DNA from: an uncultured Peptococcaceae bacterium
GTDB lineage: Bacteria > Bacillota > Peptococcia > Peptococcales > Peptococcaceae
Assembly: GCA_963558655.1 (NCBI GenBank)
Contig: CAUWHJ010000008.1
Location: 3,688 to 67,687, forward strand
Direction: 5' to 3'
Length of the DNA stretch: 64,000 nt
Made by a program: the position numbers and the translations under genes
Notes under the pieces: generated by a model
The model's input: only the letters and a program-made list of their open reading frames with translations
Told to the model about the DNA's origin: nothing
The model's database searches: none
Shown: positions 1 through 39,953 of the stretch, one piece after another
Numbering within the stretch: position 1 is the first letter of the stretch
Layout of the letters: the number at the start of each line of letters is the position of its first letter

Positions 1-1269
1 ATGATTTGGCCAAGTATTGTAGCTATGGTTGCAGTTGGATTAGAAACCGGAATGACAAAGATGTTGGGGGCAGGAATTGCAAATCCGGTAATAGCAGGGT
101 TGTTAATTTTGTTTCCTATGTTTTCGGTATTGAGTGACCTTCATGTTACTGAGTGGTTGGCAAATAAATTTATTACAAATAGATTTGCATTAGGGCGGCC
201 TTGGGTTGGTATTTCTATTATTTTCTTAGGAGCTTTTTTGACGTCATTTATTAATACAATTCTGGTTGTTATTATTTTTTGTACATTTGCTGTGAGTTTA
301 TGTAACAATTTAGGCATAGCTCCTTATAGTAAGTTTGCAACTTCTTTAGTTATTGGAATTGTATATGCGATTATGCTTGGTCAGGTAACGGTTCCATTTA
401 TTGGTACAGGTTTGACTTTTTCAACAGCTTATCAGGGGATGTTTCAAACGCCTATTTCTTATGGAAAATATCTGGCTTTTATTTATCCAGCTGGAATCGT
501 TCTTGTGCTTCTCTATGTATTGGTGATGAAATATATTATTCGTGTTGATGTTTCACCATTGAAGAATTTGACTGAAGATATGCTTGGTGCAGCAACAGCA
601 AAATTGAGCAAAGATCAAAAAAAGGCGATTATCTTTTTTCTGATTTTTGTTGTTCTTGTGGTATTATCTTCAGTTTTACCAAAAGATATTGTCATAGGTG
701 GGGTATTAAGTAATTTGGGCTTCTTTGGTATTTGTGCTGTACTGGGTGCAATTATGATGCTTGCGAAAAGATCGAATGGTGAGCCAATGCTTAACTTTTC
801 TAAGATGGCAGAGCATTTGCCATGGGAAGCATTCTTTATGACAGCTTTTATTATGGTCATTTCTGCGTTTTTGACGACTCCGGAAACGGGATTAAATGAA
901 ACGATTGCAGATCTAATTATGCCAATGACGAAATTAAATCCATGGATTTTTATTGTATTGGTATTATGTTTTGCAGCAATTGTGACAAACTTTGCCAATA
1001 ATGTAGTGTTAACGATCGTAATTATGCCAATTTTGTTTAATTTTGGCACAATGGTAGGAATGAATCCAACCGGTCTCATTTTAATATTACTGATTGTAAC
1101 ACAGTTGGCGTTAGCTACTCCTGGAGCATCGCCAGTGACAGCAATAGCAATGACGTATAAAAAAATTGTTAAAGTTACAGATATGATGAAAATGAGTTTG
1201 CTCATTATTCCTATCATGTTGATTCTATCGATTTTAGTATGCTTTGGCTGGTCGCTTGTTATTTTTTAA
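1..1269 (+). CDS. Ion-transporter (IT) superfamily permease, DASS/ArsB-like; 5' end lies outside the window
   Basis: ORF is open to the window edge. The protein is almost entirely hydrophobic and multi-TM, with a C-terminal re-entrant-type motif NFANNVVLTIVIMPI. It is a clear paralogue of the ORF at 37472..38923 (shared (M/L)IWPS, GRPW, NF(A/T)NN motifs). AT-rich (~35% GC by eye). Confidence 0.7.
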   Translation: MIWPSIVAMVAVGLETGMTKMLGAGIANPVIAGLLILFPMFSVLSDLHVTEWLANKFITNRFALGRPWVGISIIFLGAFLTSFINTILVVIIFCTFAVSLCNNLGIAPYSKFATSLVIGIVYAIMLGQVTVPFIGTGLTFSTAYQGMFQTPISYGKYLAFIYPAGIVLVLLYVLVMKYIIRVDVSPLKNLTEDMLGAATAKLSKDQKKAIIFFLIFVVLVVLSSVLPKDIVIGGVLSNLGFFGICAVLGAIMMLAKRSNGEPMLNFSKMAEHLPWEAFFMTAFIMVISAFLTTPETGLNETIADLIMPMTKLNPWIFIVLVLCFAAIVTNFANNVVLTIVIMPILFNFGTMVGMNPTGLILILLIVTQLALATPGASPVTAIAMTYKKIVKVTDMMKMSLLIIPIMLILSILVCFGWSLVIF

Positions 1270-1287
1270 GTACGATTTAGTAGAAGT

Positions 1288-1318
1288 GAGGTAGGCAATT
1301 GTTTTGTCTACCTTTTTA
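1288..1318 (+). terminator. Intrinsic terminator after the permease gene
   Basis: Imperfect hairpin (ggtaggcaa / ttgtctacc arms, 5-nt loop) followed by ttttt, 20 nt after the stop codon. Confidence 0.6.
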
Positions 1319-1343
1319 GTATTAAAAAGAAAAAGTATAAAGG

Positions 1344-1784
1344 ATGGTTAGTCAAATGGAAAAAATAGAACGTATTGAGTTTTTAAAGGATAGGGCGAAA
1401 CATTGTGTTTGTAAATATTGCGGTGGTCGCTTAGAAGTAAGACAAATTATTTTTTACGACCAAAAAGAAGCTCGTATAGAGTTATATTGTACAGAATGTA
1501 ATCGAATGGAGTATGGTGTGGAAAAAGAAATTTTTAAAAGTGCGAAATATTTCGTAGAGGAAATGGCGTTTAATCACTATCCTGACTTAGATGATAATGA
1601 AAAAACAAAACAGATGAATATAGCTAAGGTGAGTGAGATTTTAAACTGGGGATGTAAGACAATGGGGGTTTTAGATGATAATGGTTTTAAAGTTTCGGTA
1701 AAAATGGATGAAGAACTATTGGGGAAAAGTATTGTTTTAGATGAAGATTCTTTATTGAAACTTTTGCAGGAGATGGAGTTATGA
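1344..1784 (+). CDS. Hypothetical Zn-ribbon protein (146 aa)
   Basis: Two CxxC pairs (CKYCGG ... CTECN) about 20 aa apart near the N-terminus, then an acidic C-terminal half. The stop overlaps the next start (ATGA at 1781-1784). The start could instead be ATG 1356. Confidence 0.6.
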   Translation: MVSQMEKIERIEFLKDRAKHCVCKYCGGRLEVRQIIFYDQKEARIELYCTECNRMEYGVEKEIFKSAKYFVEEMAFNHYPDLDDNEKTKQMNIAKVSEILNWGCKTMGVLDDNGFKVSVKMDEELLGKSIVLDEDSLLKLLQEMEL

Positions 1785-2569
1785 GTACGGGTGTTGTGTG
1801 TTTAAAAAATGTGTCTTGTCAAGTTGGGCATCGATATTTATTACAAAATATTAATTTTGATTTACAAGCTGGTAGTAATTGTTTGATCCTTGGTGAAAAT
1901 GGGAGTGGGAAAACGACATTATTGAGTGTCATTTCAGGGATGAAACATTGTTCTGCTGGCAGCGTGGAAGTTTTTGGTCAAGCGCAAATGGAGACATCTA
2001 TAATAGAAATGCGTAAGAAGATTGGATTTGTAAGCACATCGTTTTATGATCGCTATTATCACAAGGAGTCTGTATTAAATATTGTGTTATCAGGAAAATG
2101 TGGAACATTTGGTATTGATAAAAATATCGATTATTGTGATGTTGTAGAAGCTAAAGCAATATTAAAAGCGTTGAATTTAATAGATGTTATAGACTATCCA
2201 TTTTCATATTTATCCAAAGGAGAGCGTCAAAATACTCTGCTGGCTAGGACGTTGTTACAACATCCCAATCTTTTTTTGATGGATGAACCTATGAGTGGTT
2301 TGGATATTTTAAATGTGAAAAAAGTGAAAAAATTGGTGAAAAGTTTGGCGAAAAATAAAGATATATCAATGTTGTATGTTACTCATCACATTGAAGAGAT
2401 TTCGATAGAGTGTTTTGATTATCTTATGTTATTGAGACGTGGACGAATTTATCGATATGGAAAAATAGAAGATCTATTGAATCAAGATATTCTAAGCGAA
2501 TTTTTTGGCTATGATGTAATGTTGGTGAATGGGAAAGATGGTTATTGTTCCCTAAAGGTGGTGGAATAA
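1781..2569 (+). CDS. Orphan single-domain ABC ATPase, YlmA/ModF-like, with no permease partner
   Basis: Walker A GENGSGKTT, signature LSKGERQ, Walker B LFLMDEP, H-loop VTHH. Overall pattern resembles B. subtilis YlmA (IVLSGK..., ...LSEFFGY tail). RBS aggag lies 8 nt upstream. Confidence 0.85.
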   Translation: MSTGVVCLKNVSCQVGHRYLLQNINFDLQAGSNCLILGENGSGKTTLLSVISGMKHCSAGSVEVFGQAQMETSIIEMRKKIGFVSTSFYDRYYHKESVLNIVLSGKCGTFGIDKNIDYCDVVEAKAILKALNLIDVIDYPFSYLSKGERQNTLLARTLLQHPNLFLMDEPMSGLDILNVKKVKKLVKSLAKNKDISMLYVTHHIEEISIECFDYLMLLRRGRIYRYGKIEDLLNQDILSEFFGYDVMLVNGKDGYCSLKVVE

Positions 2570-2570
2570 A

Positions 2571-3374
2571 GTGACAACTTCATTAAGAGATGTTTCGGCA
2601 GCTCAGATGGTAAATGCATTGGCAGAGGTAGGCTATTTTGATAATGAGTATAATGTGTACGGTTGTGCATTTTGGTATGAGAATAAGGTACATTACATTG
2701 TAAGTGATGATTATAATGCGATCTGTAATTTTAAAAAAAAGGCAGTATGGGAAGATATTTATGCTTCGCCAGTGTGGAAACGTGAAATAAAAGATTCTTT
2801 TTTAGAAGGCATGGAGCGAAGACATATTTTAAAATTAAAGCTTGAATTGGCTAAGGAATTGTATAATGCTTATCCTGCGTCGTATTTTAAAGAAAGGGTG
2901 GCTGAAAACTATCAAGATAGTGCTTATGATATTTTAAAAGATTGGCAACAAGAAATTGATGGATATTTTGATGAAGATGAATTGATTCTTTTTGAAGAAG
3001 CTGTTCGTTGTGCTTATCAAGGTCATAAAATAACACCAGAACATATGAAATCATTTCGTTTTTGGATTAAGCATGTACGAATGCAAATGACAGAAAACAT
3101 TGAAAAAAAGGATCGGTTTAGTCGAACTTTATATGGCTTTGCGTATGAAAATGAAGGCAAAATATTATATGTATCCAATGCAAATCAAAAAGTGATTTAT
3201 GAACGTAAAGAAGAGGTGGTCGCTAAGGGATTGTTTGTAACGCCGATTTTTGAAAAAGAATATTGGTATCATCAAAGTGAACAACTATATAAATTGAGAG
3301 GATTGTTTGAAGAAAATTTAAAAAGCATATATAATAAAAGACGTATAAAAGAGATGAAAAAAATATTATTATAG
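2571..3374 (+). CDS. Hypothetical soluble protein (267 aa), no recognisable motifs
   Basis: GTG start 1 nt after the upstream stop, with RBS aaggtgg. No TM segments. Aromatic and charged-rich. Followed by a strong terminator. Confidence 0.6.
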   Translation: MTTSLRDVSAAQMVNALAEVGYFDNEYNVYGCAFWYENKVHYIVSDDYNAICNFKKKAVWEDIYASPVWKREIKDSFLEGMERRHILKLKLELAKELYNAYPASYFKERVAENYQDSAYDILKDWQQEIDGYFDEDELILFEEAVRCAYQGHKITPEHMKSFRFWIKHVRMQMTENIEKKDRFSRTLYGFAYENEGKILYVSNANQKVIYERKEEVVAKGLFVTPIFEKEYWYHQSEQLYKLRGLFEENLKSIYNKRRIKEMKKILL

Positions 3375-3401
3375 ATTTAAAGATCATCTTAGATTATAGA
3401 T

Positions 3402-3437
3402 AAACCCTATTTGGAATTTTCTAAAATAGGGTTTTTT
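3402..3437 (+). terminator. Intrinsic terminator closing the three-gene module
   Basis: 11-bp perfect stem aaaccctattt / aaatagggttt, 11-nt loop, then tttt. Confidence 0.8.
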
Positions 3438-3620
3438 ATATTTCAGGAAAATAGGCAGATAATTGTTCTAAGATTGTTGAATAATTTACCAAAATGTTTT
3501 CAGAGATATGGAATAGCCTTCTAGTTTGTTTTTGGTAGTAGGGAACTTAATAGATTTGAAACCTTTATAGCTTATTGTTTTATATATGGTAATCTGACAT
3601 TTTTTCAGCACAGTGTTCTC

Positions 3621-3649
3621 TTGAAAGTTTGCAATCTTTCAGTTAAGAT
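3621..3649 (+). promoter_or_regulatory. Sigma-70-type promoter upstream of prfA
   Basis: TTGAAA (3621-3626), 17-nt spacer, TAAGAT (3644-3649). Confidence 0.5.
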
Positions 3650-3661
3650 AAATTCGGATGT

Positions 3662-3686
3662 CCGGGCAGTAGCCCGGCCTTTTTTC
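3662..3686 (+). terminator. Terminator-like hairpin in the prfA leader (possible attenuator or orphan terminator)
   Basis: ccgggc-agta-gcccgg stem-loop followed by ccttttttc. It ends 20 nt before the prfA ATG and lies just downstream of the predicted promoter. Confidence 0.5.
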
Positions 3687-3706
3687 AGTGTGAACAGAAG
3701 GGAGCG

Positions 3707-4795
3707 ATGCAGATGTTAGATAAGCTGCAAAACTTAGATGATAAATATGAAGAACTGGGGCGTTTATTGGCTGATCCAGAGGTGCTTGGCAATCCTGAGG
3801 AGTTGCGTAAAACTGCCAAGGCGCGTGCCGATTTGGAAGATGTGGTTATGGCTTGGCGCGAGTACCGTAAGTCTTCAGAGGAGTTGGAAGAAGCCAAAGT
3901 GATGCTTGCTGACGATTTGGACGATGAGATGGCGCAGATGGTTAAGGAAGAAATTAAAACATTGAGCGCTCAAGTGGAGAAATTGGAGCATGAGATCAAT
4001 GTGCTCTTATTGCCGAAAGATCCGAACGATGAACGTAATGTTATTGTAGAGGTGCGTGCGGGTACTGGCGGTGACGAGGCAGCCCTGTTTGCGGCGGATT
4101 TGTATAAGATGTATGTGCGCTATGCAGAAAAACAAGGCTGGAAAGTAGACGTGATGAACTCTAACGAGACAGATGGCGGTGGTTATAAAGAAGTGACCTT
4201 TATGATTATCGGTAAGGGTGCCTACAGCAAACTCAAGTTTGAAAGCGGGGTGCATCGTGTGCAGCGTGTGCCGGCTACCGAGGCGAGCGGCCGTATTCAC
4301 ACATCGGCAGCAACGGTGGCGGTATTGCCGGAAGCCGATGATGTGGAAGTGCACATCGAGCCAAAGGACTTGCGTATTGATGTGTTCTGCTCTAGCGGTC
4401 CTGGTGGGCAGTCGGTTAACACGACAAAATCGGCTGCACGTGTCACGCACATTCCAACAGGGCTTGTGGTGAGCTGCCAAGATGAAAAATCTCAGCAGAT
4501 GAATAAGGAAAAAGCCATTAAGGTGCTCAAGAGCCGTCTGTATGAAAAAATGATGGAAGAACAGCATGGCGAAGAAGCGGCATTGCGCCGTTCTATGATT
4601 GGCAGCGGCGACCGCAGTGAACGTATTCGCACCTATAATTTCCCACAAGGCCGCATTACAGACCATCGTATCAATTTAACGACTCATCGCCTGGAGCAGA
4701 CCTTGATGGGGGATCTTGAAGAACTTATTGACGCTCTTGTGAGCACCGACCAGGCACGCAAACTCAAACAGGCGGCCGAGGAGGTTGAAGCATGA
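3707..4795 (+). CDS. prfA: Peptide chain release factor 1
   Basis: GGQ motif ([11 protein letters not shown]). RF1-type PAT tripeptide (RVPATE). RBS gaagggag upstream. Confidence 0.97.
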
Positions 4796-35280: not shown

Positions 35281-35326
35281 AAGCGTAAAGAGGTGACAAA
35301 TAAACAATTTGAATGGAGGGTCTATT

Positions 35327-37363
35327 ATGTTTGAGAAAAAAACTGACAAAGTCATTGTCTTAGGTGTTGATGGTTTTGATCCTAGATTGGCAAAATATTT
35401 CATGGATCAAGGAAAAATGCCAGCACTTAAAACATATATGGAAAAAGGGGCTGCGAGAGGAGATATGGTCTTGCTCGGCGGAATGCCTACCGTTACTCCG
35501 CCAATGTGGACAACTTTAGCAACCGGTGCTTATCCGGTGACGCATGGTATTACAGCGTTTTTTGGACAACATCCAGACAAACTAGATACATGTACTTATA
35601 ATTTGGATTCACGTTTATGCAGAGCAGAACAATTGTGGAATGTAACGGCAGAAGCGGGAAAGAAAACCTTAGTGTGGCATTGGCCAGGGTCAAGCTGGCC
35701 ACCAAGTAGCGATAGTCCAAATCTTTCAGTTGTAGATGGTACTCAACCAACAGCTATCAATCTTGGAACTGCATGTATAGATCAATCAATCCTTGGGATG
35801 GCAGATGAAAACATTCCTTCTGTTTTGTTTCATTCTCATGATGCTCCAGCGGATGGTGTTAATGGCTGTGTTATTACGGGGCTAGAGGATATGGTAGCGA
35901 AACAGAACAATGAAAATAAAAAAGGTAGAGGGGCTAGTGCTATATTAAAAGGTGAGAAAGAATTTAAAAATTTAATTATGAACGATGATGAAACAGAAAT
36001 TAATACGTTAGCTGAAATCGCAACGGACGTATGTAATAGTCCAATTACAATGGCAAAAGGTTGGTCGAAAGAGGTTGGTGACAGTAAAGAATTTACCATT
36101 CTAACTTCAAATGGGTTTGTACATAGACCATGTTTGATTGTGAAAAATGACAATGGTGTTTACGATCATATTGAAATTTATGCTAATAAAAAAGAAAGTA
36201 TGCCGATTGCGGTAGTGTATCCAGATACATATCATATAGATATTGTCGATAAGGTTTTGCACAATGATAAACAGATTGATGCAAATCGTAATATGGTAAT
36301 TTTTGATCTAGCAGAAGATGGCTCTTATATTCGTTATTGGTTGAGTAGGGCCTATGATATTCATTCAGACCTTGTTTGGCATCCGAAAGACCTTTATAGT
36401 GAAGTGGTTGAAAATGTCGGATATGTGCCACCGATCTGTATGTTAAGTGCAAAGAACCATGATTTTGTGGAAAAAGGTATTTTAAAAAGTTGGGATTATT
36501 ATTGTGATTGGCAGGCAAAAGCATTAACCTATTTCATGGATAATGAGAAATATGATGTTATTTTCTCGCATCTTCATAATATTGATGGCGTTGGGCATCT
36601 GTTCTGGCATTATGCAAAGCATAGTGACGAATGGGGAAACGATGAAGAATTTTATCAGAAAGCTTTTGAATATATGTATCAGCAAACAGATTGTTATTTT
36701 GGAAGATTCTTGAAATATCTTGATGAAGGTTGGACCATTATTTTAACATCGGATCATGGCTTAATTACAGAAGAATACCATCCGCCTATTTTGACTGAAG
36801 GAACGGTTAGTGTCCCTGTTATGGAAGAATTAGGATATACCGTATTGAAGAAAGATGAAAATGGTAACAAGTTAAGGGAAATTGACTGGGATAAAACAAA
36901 AGCTATCGCTATTAGAGGTGGTCATATTTATATTAATCTGAAGGGGAGAAATACAACTGGCATTGTAGCTCCAGAAGATAAATATGAATTGGAAGGTCAA
37001 ATTATTTCTGATTTATATAATTATAGAGATCCAAGAACAAATAAACGTGTTGTAGCTATAGCACTAAGAAATAAAGACGCTGTTCTTCTTGGTCTTGGTG
37101 GGGATCAATGTGGCGATATTATCTTCTTCATGGAAGAAGGGTTTAATATCATTCACATGGATTCGCTTTCAACTCAAAATGGCTACTTCCATACATCTGT
37201 TTCACCATTCTTTATTGCTGCTGGGGCTGGTATTAAGTCTAACTATCGTACCGATAGATATATTCGTCAAGTAGATGTTACTCCAACTATTGCGGCTTTA
37301 CTTGGTGTTCATTTGCCAAAACAGTCAGAAGGTTCTATCGTACATCAGATTTTTGAAGATTAA
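35327..37363 (+). CDS. Alkaline-phosphatase-superfamily enzyme, nucleotide pyrophosphatase/phosphodiesterase (NPP)-like, cytoplasmic
   Basis: Metal ligand VLGVDGFDP. Nucleophile region MPTVTPPMWTTLATGAYPVTHGI. Distal HLHNIDGVGH and LTSDHG. No signal peptide. ATG 35327 lies 6 nt behind ggaggg. Confidence 0.8.
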   Translation: MFEKKTDKVIVLGVDGFDPRLAKYFMDQGKMPALKTYMEKGAARGDMVLLGGMPTVTPPMWTTLATGAYPVTHGITAFFGQHPDKLDTCTYNLDSRLCRAEQLWNVTAEAGKKTLVWHWPGSSWPPSSDSPNLSVVDGTQPTAINLGTACIDQSILGMADENIPSVLFHSHDAPADGVNGCVITGLEDMVAKQNNENKKGRGASAILKGEKEFKNLIMNDDETEINTLAEIATDVCNSPITMAKGWSKEVGDSKEFTILTSNGFVHRPCLIVKNDNGVYDHIEIYANKKESMPIAVVYPDTYHIDIVDKVLHNDKQIDANRNMVIFDLAEDGSYIRYWLSRAYDIHSDLVWHPKDLYSEVVENVGYVPPICMLSAKNHDFVEKGILKSWDYYCDWQAKALTYFMDNEKYDVIFSHLHNIDGVGHLFWHYAKHSDEWGNDEEFYQKAFEYMYQQTDCYFGRFLKYLDEGWTIILTSDHGLITEEYHPPILTEGTVSVPVMEELGYTVLKKDENGNKLREIDWDKTKAIAIRGGHIYINLKGRNTTGIVAPEDKYELEGQIISDLYNYRDPRTNKRVVAIALRNKDAVLLGLGGDQCGDIIFFMEEGFNIIHMDSLSTQNGYFHTSVSPFFIAAGAGIKSNYRTDRYIRQVDVTPTIAALLGVHLPKQSEGSIVHQIFED

Positions 37364-37380
37364 AGTGTTATTCTAATAGT

Positions 37381-37417
37381 ATGAAGAGAGAAACAAGTTA
37401 ATTTCTCTCTTCATTTA
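37381..37417 (+). terminator. Hairpin after the phosphodiesterase gene (weak T tract)
   Basis: 13-bp perfect stem atgaagagagaaa / tttctctcttcat with an 8-nt loop. Confidence 0.55.
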
Positions 37418-37471
37418 TAGATTAGTGTCACATTTAATTTTGCATAAATATAATCAAAGTGAGGTGTAATT

Positions 37472-38923
37472 ATGTCCACGAAAGTAGCAATTAAAAAAGA
37501 TTATACCTTTTACATTCATGTTATTATTACGTTGTTTTTTATGTTTGTTTTTGGTCGTATTGTTCCTCCGGTTGGTCCATTGACTGAGATTGGTATGAAT
37601 TGCCTTGGAATTTTAATCGGAGTTATTTATGCTTGGACGACAACCAGCCTTATTTGGCCTAGTTTTCTTGGCATGGTTGCGATGGTTACTAATGGTGCAT
37701 ATACGATGACAGAATGGCTACCTGTTTTTTTTGCAAATACGACTGTAGTTTTTATGTTACTTATATTTGTTTTTACGCAGGTTATTAATGAATCTGGCTT
37801 GGTTAAATTTTTTGCTGCATGGCTGATGAGTCGGAAAATTATAGAGGGTAGACCTTGGCTATTCACGTCCTTTTTGTTATTAGGTGCATATCTTGGTGGT
37901 ATGTTTGTTAATGGTTTTGCGGTTTCATTAATTTTGTGGATGATTTTATATGACGTTTGCAACAAATTTGGTTTTAAGCCTTATGAAAAATATCCAACAA
38001 TGATGATTTTGGGTATTGTACTTTGTTCATGCATATTGGGAACTTCTGTAATGCCTTATCGTTTGACAGCAATGGTCATGATAGGGACTATTAATTCTGT
38101 TGCACCACAGTGGGCGGTGAATTCTTCTCAATATTTACTCTTTGCTGTGCCGACAACATTAATAATGGTTGTTAGCTATATACTTATTATGAAATTTGTA
38201 TTTCGAATTGATCTCTCTAAAATGAAAACGATTAGTAGTGATTATGTAAATCAAGGGGATCTAGCTCTTACAAAAATACAGAAGATTTCTGCGATTTTTC
38301 TGGTTGTTGCTGTTGTTTCGTTGATTGTTGTCGATTCTATTTCGAGTTTAGATAGCATAAGTAATATTGGCGTTATTTTGGCAGTTTTGGCAGTGATGTT
38401 ATTAATTAAAGTTGATGGAGAACCATTACTTGATTTTGCGAAAGCTGCAAGGGGAATTCAATGGCAGATGATATTTTTATTTGCTTTTATTCTTCCCTTT
38501 TCTAATTACCTTACATCAGATGCGACAGGCATTAAAACATTGTTAATTCAAAATGCTATTCCGTTTTTTTCATCTATGTCGCCATTGGTTTTTGTTTTCT
38601 TGATATCATTTATTGGCATGATCCTTACTAATTTTACAAATAATGCGGTCCTTTCGATTATGTTGATAACTATATCAATACCGATTTGTGAAGGGATGGG
38701 AATTTCACCATTACCACTTATTATGCTTGGCGTATTTACGAATCAATTTGCATTTCTTACGCCAGCAGCATCTGCTCCAGCGGCATTTGTATTTGCAAAT
38801 ACTGCATGGATTAAACCGGCTGATATGTATAAAATTATTCCGGTTACATTGCTTTTATTGTTTATTGTAGCGTGTGTAGTCGCCTTTCCTTATGCTTGTT
38901 TGATCTTTGGGTTCCATATTTAA
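37472..38923 (+). CDS. IT-superfamily permease, paralogue of the ORF at 1..1269
   Basis: 483-aa polytopic protein. Shares LIWPS, GRPW and NFTNNAVLSIML motifs with the first ORF of the window. RBS gtgaggtg upstream. Confidence 0.75.
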   Translation: MSTKVAIKKDYTFYIHVIITLFFMFVFGRIVPPVGPLTEIGMNCLGILIGVIYAWTTTSLIWPSFLGMVAMVTNGAYTMTEWLPVFFANTTVVFMLLIFVFTQVINESGLVKFFAAWLMSRKIIEGRPWLFTSFLLLGAYLGGMFVNGFAVSLILWMILYDVCNKFGFKPYEKYPTMMILGIVLCSCILGTSVMPYRLTAMVMIGTINSVAPQWAVNSSQYLLFAVPTTLIMVVSYILIMKFVFRIDLSKMKTISSDYVNQGDLALTKIQKISAIFLVVAVVSLIVVDSISSLDSISNIGVILAVLAVMLLIKVDGEPLLDFAKAARGIQWQMIFLFAFILPFSNYLTSDATGIKTLLIQNAIPFFSSMSPLVFVFLISFIGMILTNFTNNAVLSIMLITISIPICEGMGISPLPLIMLGVFTNQFAFLTPAASAPAAFVFANTAWIKPADMYKIIPVTLLLLFIVACVVAFPYACLIFGFHI

Positions 38924-38941
38924 AGGAAACAAAAAAGAAGG

Positions 38942-38990
38942 CCCACTTGTATAATGCAATGATTTACAGTGCATTGTAAGTGGGTTTTCT
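38942..38990. terminator. Imperfect long hairpin between the convergent permease and LysR genes
   Basis: cccactt...aatgc / gcatt...aagtggg arms with an internal loop, followed by ttttctttg. Confidence 0.5.
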
Positions 38991-39041
38991 TTGTATGAAG
39001 TTTTTTATGATGTGCGATTTCAGGTTTATCATTAAAGATAC

Positions 39042-39953
39042 TTAATTGAGACGACTGAATTCTTTAATGATTTGGATGAAGCGTTCAATAATTGAAATTG
39101 AATTAGATGTTTTATTATAGATAGCGTATGTTGGAAAAGATTGTAGGTTACAAATAGGAATGGCTTTTACATTATCATTTGTATAGTCAATCATATTGCT
39201 AAAGGTTAGACCTATGGCATTTTGACGGACAATAAGTTGACGAATGAGATTGATATTGTTTGAATATAGGACGATATTTACATTATCGAAATCAGAAAAA
39301 AGAGACTTATATGTTAAATCGTCAGATTGATCGGATGCGGTTAAAGCAAGTGGAAAAGTTATTATTTCCTCTAAGCTGACTGATTTACGTTGAGCAAAAA
39401 TAGATGATTCGTTCACCAAGATATACATACTTTCATAGTAAAGAAAATCATAGCAGTAATCGCTATAATCTTGAATATTATCAAGTTGTTTTGAATTACA
39501 AAAAGAAATTCCTATATCACTGATTCCAGTTAAAACGTCATCTATCACTAGATTGGATGACTTTTCGATGACTGAAAGTTTAATTTTTGGATTTTTTTCT
39601 AAGAAAAATGGAACAATTTCATGAAGATAGTAATTATTCGCAGCAAAAGTTAAACTTACTTTCAAAGATCCTGAAATTTCGGTAGAGAATGTTTGATTAT
39701 ATTGGATGGCAAGTTGGTCAAATTTACTTGTTAATGACAGAATTTGTTTCGAAAGTTCAAAAGCTGTTTGACCATATGATGTGAGTGTAACTCCAGAATG
39801 GTGGCGATTGAATAATGGAAAACCTATTTCTTGTTCAAGATTTTGTAAAGCAACGCTAAGAGCGGGAGAAGAGATAAATAAATTATCTGCTGCTTTACGA
39901 ATTGATCCGGTTTTTGCTATTTCAACAAAATATTTAAGCTGTTCAATACGCAT
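39042..39953 (-). CDS. LysR-family transcriptional regulator
   Basis: N-terminal HTH (IRKAADNLFISSPALSVALQNLEQEIGFPLFNR) plus a substrate-binding domain of typical length. Confidence 0.9.
   Translation of the reverse strand: MRIEQLKYFVEIAKTGSIRKAADNLFISSPALSVALQNLEQEIGFPLFNRHHSGVTLTSYGQTAFELSKQILSLTSKFDQLAIQYNQTFSTEISGSLKVSLTFAANNYYLHEIVPFFLEKNPKIKLSVIEKSSNLVIDDVLTGISDIGISFCNSKQLDNIQDYSDYCYDFLYYESMYILVNESSIFAQRKSVSLEEIITFPLALTASDQSDDLTYKSLFSDFDNVNIVLYSNNINLIRQLIVRQNAIGLTFSNMIDYTNDNVKAIPICNLQSFPTYAIYNKTSNSISIIERFIQIIKEFSRLN

Follow-up and report, generated by a model that had tools for sequence, protein, structure and literature searches.

ATP-binding cassette (ABC) ATPases can work on soluble proteins: in SufBC2D, in PhnK/PhnL of the carbon-phosphorus (C-P) lyase and in component A2 of methyl-coenzyme M reductase, dimers of nucleotide-binding domains (NBDs) assemble, open or activate a soluble enzyme that is encoded alongside. 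For the ModF/YlmA-type ABC ATPases we know of no settled function, and of no relative accompanied by partners of the kind described below. Here, we analyzed a stretch of 64,000 nucleotides from an uncultured Peptococcaceae bacterium (assembly GCA_963558655.1, contig CAUWHJ010000008.1, positions 3,688 to 67,687 of the forward strand; hereafter the window), in which three coupled genes at 1344-3374 encode a zinc-ribbon protein (ZR), a single NBD (ABC) and a protein of 267 amino acids (U267). This trio is an undescribed, soluble and probably non-transport ABC ATPase module with two partners of no known family and, judged from its gene neighborhoods, an accessory and optional part of a catabolic cassette that also holds a LysR regulator, an enzyme of the alkaline phosphatase (AP) superfamily and an anion permease. 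We propose, giving it a little less than an even chance, that the trio is an ATP-driven accessory module acting on the cassette enzyme, and neither a transporter engine nor a defense system.

The three genes of the trio are the following:

1344-1784, forward strand: ZR gene, open reading frame (ORF) of 146 amino acids, probably 142 amino acids from ATG 1356
1781-2569, forward strand: ABC gene, ORF of 262 amino acids
2571-3374, forward strand: U267 gene, ORF of 267 amino acids with a GTG start

When the sequence was read again, the three ORFs were found with the coupling that an earlier note on this DNA had claimed, in such a way that the ZR stop and the ABC start overlap in an ATGA at 1781-1784 and a single nucleotide separates the ABC stop (2569) from the GTG of U267 (2571). 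This GTG was confirmed as the start of U267 by its homologues, which begin with MTTSLRDV. A AAGGATGG box at 1340-1347 abuts ATG 1344, and for this reason ZR would more likely start at ATG 1356. The commonest junction in related loci is a 4-nt overlap. No hydrophobic segment was found in ZR, ABC or U267, as in soluble proteins.

The middle protein had been taken for a complete single NBD, and this was borne out by a match to PF00005 (E-value 8.5e-26, 91.6 bits against a cutoff of 25) and by the motifs GxNGSGKTT, LSKGERQ, LDEP, GLD and TH, invariant or more than 90% conserved in an alignment of 61 sequences. In the same relatives the Gln of the Q-loop is replaced (VSxS, with an invariant S85). 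The mean column identity is 53%, and position C13 is a Cys in 79% of the NBDs. Among solved structures, the closest chains are those of 2ihy (3.2e-38) and 4hzi (4.9e-33), both stand-alone NBDs from structural genomics. Judged by these motifs, ABC is a catalytically complete NBD of the ModF/YlmA type (COG1119). Its best NCBIfam match is the C-terminal half of ModF (2.5e-39), and an assignment as ModF itself (equivalog NF008186) was rejected, with 135 bits against a cutoff of 459 and an alignment only to model positions 260-485 of 490.

The CxxC...CxxC ribbon attributed to the 146-amino-acid partner is real. Cys21, 23, 26, 49 and 52 are invariant or nearly so (98%), and the segments RIEYGVExE and QMNIAKV are also conserved; the relatives number 320, with identities of around 50%, and where a source name is given, as for a few of them, it is "hypothetical protein". 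The structural model of ZR (predicted local distance difference test, pLDDT, 92) places β-hairpins at 29-36 and 43-49 between the knuckles, and with two CxxC knuckles on β-hairpins the predicted protein has the make-up of a zinc ribbon. Profile and structure searches nevertheless yielded no known family or fold: no Pfam, NCBIfam, PDB-sequence or fold match was found for ZR, nor any Pfam zinc-ribbon family at cutoff. Longer, fused forms of ZR were absent among 8000 candidates, which is weak evidence.

In U267, two β-β-α-β-α modules (around residues 18-104 and 176-258) flank a three-helix bundle in a model of pLDDT 93.1, and the two halves are homologous, the result of an internal duplication (hhalign probability 97.2%, E 3.6e-11). 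The family comprises 560 representative clusters with a typical length of around 310 amino acids, and the copy in the window lacks the C-terminal tail of about 45 residues of typical members. With a mean column identity of 35%, U267 is the most variable component of the trio. The lack of a recognized motif in this partner was confirmed, in that Pfam, NCBIfam, PDB sequences and the defense library PADLOC yield no family and no Pfam recurs among 64 members; fold searches matched a generic helical bundle only, the α/β modules being effectively unsearched. A fused ABC-U267 ORF of 624 amino acids was detected at L055:6200-8074 (on the same contig as L088), with ABC at 17-267 and U267 at 328-574; it is the only case seen, and may be a fusion that exists in nature or else an artifact of the assembly.

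The trio closes a six-gene cassette in the order LysR, AP697, permease, ZR, ABC, U267. The first three genes lie left of the window or run into it, and are given in coordinates of the locus L001 (C8:1-8000), from which window coordinates are obtained by subtracting 3687:

L001:130-1092, left of the window: LysR regulator, 320 amino acids (LysR HTH_1, 3.5e-14)
L001:1301-3394, left of the window: AP697 enzyme, 697 amino acids (PF01663, 2e-20, 74 bits against a cutoff of 23)
L001:3508 to window 1269, forward strand: CitMHS/DASS-type anion permease (Perm482), 482 amino acids (PF03600, E 3.4e-17, 63 bits against a cutoff of 31.9)

The permease, with many hydrophobic windows, ends 75 nt upstream of the trio, and positions 1..1269 of the window are its 3' part. 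The earlier statement that the unit encodes no membrane domain is right for the three trio genes only.

A search of one genome per species with the ZR alignment turned up 114 relatives. From these, 80 related loci were retained and annotated with our own ORF calls and phmmer. According to their record titles, these are mostly from Peptococcaceae, and also from Desulfitobacterium, Syntrophomonas, Gracilibacteraceae, Clostridia, Eubacterium and Actinomycetes. ZR was followed by ABC in 71 of the 80 loci, and the full trio was found in order in 57. Among the remaining ZR-ABC loci, 10 hit a contig end and four have room but no adjacent U267, although two of these carry U267 elsewhere. The ORF caller keeps the longest non-overlapping ORF, and an antisense ORF occupies the ZR site in at least 3 of the 80 loci (L008, L011 and L023), as it also does at C5:24015 and C6:33314 in the genome of the window; the trio counts are therefore lower bounds. 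Those three loci belong to the nine without a called ZR-ABC pair, of which others hit a contig end. These data support that the three families co-occur in a fixed order elsewhere and, with both partners unmatched, that the trio is the undescribed soluble three-component system on a ModF/YlmA-like NBD that the earlier note had proposed. No description of the module or of the cassette was found in the published literature, as far as titles and the openings of abstracts go.

The trio is not the orphan that it had been called. Of the 71 ZR-ABC loci, 63 have an AP697 homologue nearby, all eight others having at most 3.1 kb of upstream sequence, and this homologue is usually accompanied by an anion permease and LysR. 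A LysR gene was found in 47 of these loci and in many of them runs divergently to the trio (as in L026, L030 and L068), and LysR, enzyme, transporter and trio stand together in cassettes from Desulfitobacterium, Clostridia and Actinomycetes records. Transporters aside, no other conserved neighbor family was found among the loci. A two-gene variant with inverted order was also observed, in which an ABC gene (261-274 amino acids) precedes a ZR-like gene (120-126 amino acids) and no U267 follows (L089:1397-2655 and L004:2367-3561); L089 corresponds to C6:101396-102654 in the genome of the window, and the variant stands beside a transporter of the MFS or SulP type and an enzyme of the AP superfamily that has diverged further.

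The AP697 enzyme is a cytoplasmic protein of around 690 amino acids with an insertion of some 280 residues, and a cassette holds from one to three of these enzymes. It belongs with the NPP/PhnA-like members of the AP superfamily by its PF01663 domain, Thr nucleophile and D/H metal ligands, and its profile against the PDB matches PhnA (2e-9), PafA (7e-7), a bacterial NPP (1e-6) and also ENPP6. Residues D16, T58 (in PTxTPP), H416/D419/H423, D476/H477 and H627 are 98-100% conserved in 87 AP697 sequences, and on these grounds the enzyme looks active, with a two-metal site. Three Cys, C98, C180 and C684, are around 90% conserved. No NCBIfam equivalog matches AP697. A formylglycine sulfatase was considered and rejected, as PF00884 reaches 14.8 bits against a cutoff of 25 and the nucleophile motif is PTxTPP. 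Two genes for true PF00884 sulfatases are found in the same genome at C10:37550-40878.

In the genome of the window (2.47 Mb), U267 is represented by 11 genes and a further weak match and ZR by 10 genes, and there are 28 AP697, 26 Perm482 and 40 LysR matches. Nine complete trios were called, together with two ABC-U267 pairs without a called ZR and the ABC-ZR-like duo of the inverted variant. A second cassette, without the trio, lies within the window itself at 35309-39953 and consists of:

35309-37363: AP697 paralogue, 684 amino acids
37472-38923: Perm482 paralogue, 483 amino acids
39042-39953, reverse strand: divergent LysR regulator, 303 amino acids

Beyond this genome, the U267 profile matches 21 of 24 genomes of the family but none of 16 that represent three further families of the order. 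When the phylum was sampled evenly, U267 was present in 7 of 9 genomes of the family and in none elsewhere (around 390 genomes of around 140 families), which makes 8 of 401 when the genome of the window is included. The module is thus nearly restricted to a single family of the Bacillota. AP697 is more widespread, and was detected in 22 of the 24 family genomes, with at least 28 scored matches in several of them; in two relatives the 28 scored matches come out of 89 and 153 first-look candidates. The amplification is extreme in the relatives G014 and G015, the latter with 32 U267 matches and the 153 first-look AP697 candidates in a 3-Mb assembly of 650 contigs, and the cassettes themselves may be what breaks these two assemblies.

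In the mechanism that we propose, the NBD would dimerize on ATP, and binding and hydrolysis would drive conformational work through ZR and U267. The pseudo-twofold U267 would be placed where the membrane domains sit in transporters, facing the NBD dimer, a position that its internal duplication would suit, and ZR would act as a conserved adaptor or as the piece that bears a metal or thiol. The soluble client would most likely be the AP697 of the cassette itself, and the work done on it might be activation, assembly, servicing of a metal or thiol active site, or remodeling during turnover. The fixed gene order, the coupling and the AP697 gene in 63 of 71 loci support an enzyme-linked module. 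The apparently active enzyme, the changing type of transporter beside a constant trio, the soluble and complete NBD without the Q-loop Gln, the fused ABC-U267 ORF and the thioredoxin genes near some cassettes also speak for it. The distance matrices of the trio proteins correlate with one another (r 0.80-0.83), so that, as far as such comparisons go, paralogue-specific modules are co-diversifying. The complex of two ABC, one ZR and one U267 was also predicted, and the scores with U267 as partner, 0.20 and 0.18 against a mark of 0.32, are neither support nor counter-evidence.

Several observations weigh against this proposal, and the main weakness is the number of enzyme genes, and of some genomes, that do without the module. 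In the genome of the window, 18 of the 26 full-length AP697 genes lie within five genes of a part of the trio and the other 8 do not, and on a quick tree the linked and unlinked copies interleave (7 changes against 7.0 with shuffled labels). One relative, G001, has eight AP697 and no U267 matches at 92% completeness, and AP697 occurs in one or two copies in 5 of 9 sister-family genomes, without U267. The distance matrices of the trio follow those of the permease (r 0.81-0.86) at least as closely as those of the nearest enzyme (0.58-0.63). This mirror-tree comparison does not tell which of the two is the partner, being confounded by shared descent and by the ambiguous choice of one enzyme gene where a locus has several. 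For a maturase of a generic kind a single copy in each genome should be enough, whereas the genome of the window has 11 divergent copies. Finally, the conserved residues of U267 (D7, G31, Y42, F133, W165 and P225) suggest no catalytic site.

The trio might instead serve transport, with the NBD module docking on the secondary anion permease to energize or gate uptake and ZR and U267 as adaptors, much as the soluble ATPase ArsA turns the secondary carrier ArsB into a pump. This analogy fits the place of the trio, directly downstream of a Perm482-type permease here and in many loci, the permease correlations given above, and the nearest named relatives of the NBD, which are the NBDs of oxyanion importers (ModF, ModC, CysA-type and PhnC). 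We hold it to be unlikely all the same, since the trio stays constant while the type of transporter varies, which argues against a dedicated transport engine: among 25 unlabelled neighbors we found six divergent proteins of the divalent anion symporter (DASS)/CitMHS type, eight of the major facilitator superfamily (MFS) and one SulP, to which two further MFS were added, and in L014 an ABC importer lies downstream of the trio. Moreover, the trio comes directly after the enzyme and not the permease in roughly 20 loci, many cassettes of permease and enzyme have no trio (26 Perm482 matches against 11 U267 genes in the genome, and the second cassette of the window), and the Q-loop Gln that links an NBD to its membrane domain is replaced. 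A conventional NBD of an ABC transporter, with the gene for its membrane partner at another site, would account for a complete domain highly similar to importer NBDs, but it is hard to credit when 11 paralogous copies come with ZR and U267 and none with ABC membrane genes, when the order is kept in 57 loci and when the nearest chains, 2ihy and 4hzi, are stand-alone; assignment as a membrane-coupled NBD was rejected, as no ABC membrane gene stands beside these copies or in a typical locus and the Q-loop Gln is absent. The least probable of all is the anti-phage defense, or toxin-antitoxin, module on a mobile island, close to an option that the earlier note had raised and that finds no support here. 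The cassette is indeed GC-poor and in a variable spot, ABC-like ATPases are present in several defense systems, and the NBD gave weak matches in PADLOC-DB 2.0 (dated 2023) to mad3 (1.5e-23, residues 140-221 only) and AriA (3e-11); these are generic ATPase cross-matches, however, while ZR, U267 and AP697 have no PADLOC match, domains of a nuclease, a protease or another effector are missing, the constant neighbors are a catabolic enzyme, a permease and LysR, and there are up to 32 matches in one genome.

Two further explanations, to each of which we give only a small chance, keep the trio close to the enzyme or its regulation. In one, ZR and the ATPase would form with thioredoxin (Trx) and thioredoxin reductase (TrxR) an ATP-coupled relay of thiols or electrons that reduces or reactivates AP697, whose chemistry would then include a reductive step; ABC ATPases that aid the reductive activation of an enzyme are known, such as component A2. 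Trx genes follow the trio in L017 and L077, TrxR-Trx genes lie around 5 kb upstream in L026 and L030, L029 has the order enzyme, trio, TrxR-Trx, permease, Trx, and in L098-L100, from the sister-family genomes G031, G040 and G026, AP697 orthologues without the trio are directly followed by a thioredoxin and a TrxR-Trx fusion. The genome of the window keeps a single long TrxR-Trx fusion (around 419 amino acids, with the thioredoxin domain at the C-terminus) away from the cassettes, at C3:42781-44040, with 463 bits to the AP697-adjacent orthologue of other lineages. Such neighbors hint at thiol chemistry, and the three conserved Cys of AP697, the five of ZR and C13 of the NBDs also count in favor of a relay. 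Yet Trx genes appear in only around 6 of the 80 loci, the Cys of ZR are most simply read as a structural zinc site, and the trio proteins contain no redox cofactor domain. The phyletic profiles of long TrxR-Trx and AP697 show a positive trend that is loose, phylogenetically confounded and unspecific, in that three genomes (G006, G035 and G039) have the former without the latter. In the other explanation the trio would be a sensor, by analogy with PstB-PhoU of the Pho system, that responds to the substrate, to a product (phosphate or sulfate) or to ATP and modulates LysR or the enzyme. The frequent and often divergent LysR genes noted above speak for such a sensor, and the variability of U267 (35% against 53% for the NBD) could suit a variable ligand. 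As a rule, however, LysR regulators recognize the inducer on their own, the trio has no domain for binding DNA and none known to bind a ligand, and its correlation with LysR was the weakest (0.13-0.34, in divergent pairs).

A more specific version of the enzyme's role, which we regard as improbable, concerns sulfur. The genome of the window has DsrA (530 bits, above cutoff) and DsrB at C14:66206-68403, whereas at 99.4% completeness Sat was not found and AprA only below cutoff, so that the bacterium looks like a sulfite reducer and not a sulfate reducer. The amplified AP697 cassettes could then turn organic sulfate esters, once imported, into sulfite for respiration, by a route in which the Thr nucleophile would take the sulfuryl group, a conserved Cys would receive it and thioredoxin would release sulfite, with a chemistry akin to that of phosphoadenosine phosphosulfate (PAPS) reductase or of Trx-coupled ArsC, and ZR-ABC-U267 would give an ATP-driven step for less activated esters. 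The permeases (Na+/sulfate symporter-like and SulP), the Trx/TrxR neighbors and the conserved Cys are compatible with such a route. If it were true, reducers without sulfate activation could respire host and dietary sulfate conjugates. Bench work has reportedly been carried out on steroid and aryl sulfatases of Peptococcus niger. Beyond the Trx genes of L098 (6477-14970), L099 and L100, microcompartment shell proteins and an acetylating aldehyde dehydrogenase are encoded, and L098 also has the choline trimethylamine-lyase CutC (1564 bits against a cutoff of 1050); the AP697 of these loci may supply the cut pathway with choline cleaved from an ester.

Within the cassette, two hairpins flank the trio:

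1288-1314, forward strand: hairpin between the permease and ZR genes (-15.1 kcal/mol, z -4.25), followed by TTTTTAG
3404-3440, forward strand: intrinsic-terminator-like hairpin and T-run closing the cassette (stem 3404-3433, -16.3 kcal/mol, z -4.30)

The hairpins behind the two terminators claimed around the trio are real, as both fold far better than shuffled sequences and each is followed by a T-run, that of the second being TTTTTTAT; none of 200 shuffles folded as well as the 3404-3433 hairpin. Only 29 nt separate the first from ATG 1344, so that no sigma-70 promoter would fit there, and it is probably an intra-operon attenuator or a sub-operon boundary. In related loci, 31 of the 49 distinct gaps that precede ZR hold a comparable hairpin with a T-run, compared with 18 of 55 enzyme-permease gaps, taken as controls, and 21 of 57 sites after U267. 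Its recurrence before ZR makes a semi-separate sub-operon plausible, and owing to this hairpin the trio is probably expressed below the enzyme and the permease. Rfam gave no match at E 1 or better in positions 1-4000 of the window.

The trio had been described as AT-rich, which is correct, its region having a GC content of 0.28-0.35 against 0.42-0.54 from prfA downstream. It is not a discrete unit, however, since the AT-rich block extends over at least 7.3 kb and reaches the contig end, in such a way that the trio is only the last third of this block and the end of the six-gene cassette. Upstream of prfA, four congeners differ: a cassette is absent from G010 and G004, the enzyme-permease-LysR set of G005 is inverted and comes without the trio, and the genome of the window has the six genes. 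This varying content indicates that the cassette is an insertion in a variable spot. Horizontal acquisition, as previously suggested, agrees with this spot and with the low GC content, but the family is native to the lineage: the genome of the window holds another 10 U267 genes, and the GC content of its trio copies ranges over 0.29-0.52, so that a low value is not peculiar to the copy in the window. A GC-rich hairpin (CCGGGC...GCCCGG) with a T-run was also noted at 3662-3677, 30 nt before the prfA start (-12.7 kcal/mol, z -2.0). It sits at the GC boundary of the inserted cassette and may be the terminator of whatever once preceded prfA before the insertion.

For ABC ATPases of the ModF/YlmA type, which lack a settled role, the fixed context and the likely client make the function of the module directly testable. 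The dozens of cassette loci in one family of gut anaerobes suggest a large uncharted capacity for the cleavage of phosphate or sulfate esters, which might be of host, dietary or drug origin. Should the enzyme need an ATPase module and thioredoxin, its chemistry may exceed simple hydrolysis.

When compared with known systems, the trio shares with ArsA-ArsB that a soluble ATPase gene adjoins an anion carrier of the ion-transporter superfamily, and differs in that ArsA is not an ABC protein and in that the carrier family beside the trio varies (DASS, MFS, SulP). The enzyme resembles the NPP/PhnA/PafA branch in its PF01663 domain, Thr nucleophile motif and metal ligands, and departs from it in its length of around 690 amino acids, its insertion of around 280 residues, its three conserved Cys, its thioredoxin neighbors and, in one family, the trio beside it; we know of no enzyme of the AP superfamily with an ATPase partner. 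Like the ModF/YlmA (COG1119) orphans, which are its best sequence matches, ABC is a single soluble NBD without an adjacent ABC membrane gene, whereas ModF itself has two NBDs and ABC has one. Searches of Pfam, NCBIfam and the PDB detected no homology of ZR or U267 to SufB/D, PhnG-J or the Mcr activation proteins, and the likeness to SufBC2D, to PhnK/PhnL of the C-P lyase and to component A2 would lie in the same proposed principle, an ABC ATPase that acts on a soluble enzyme.

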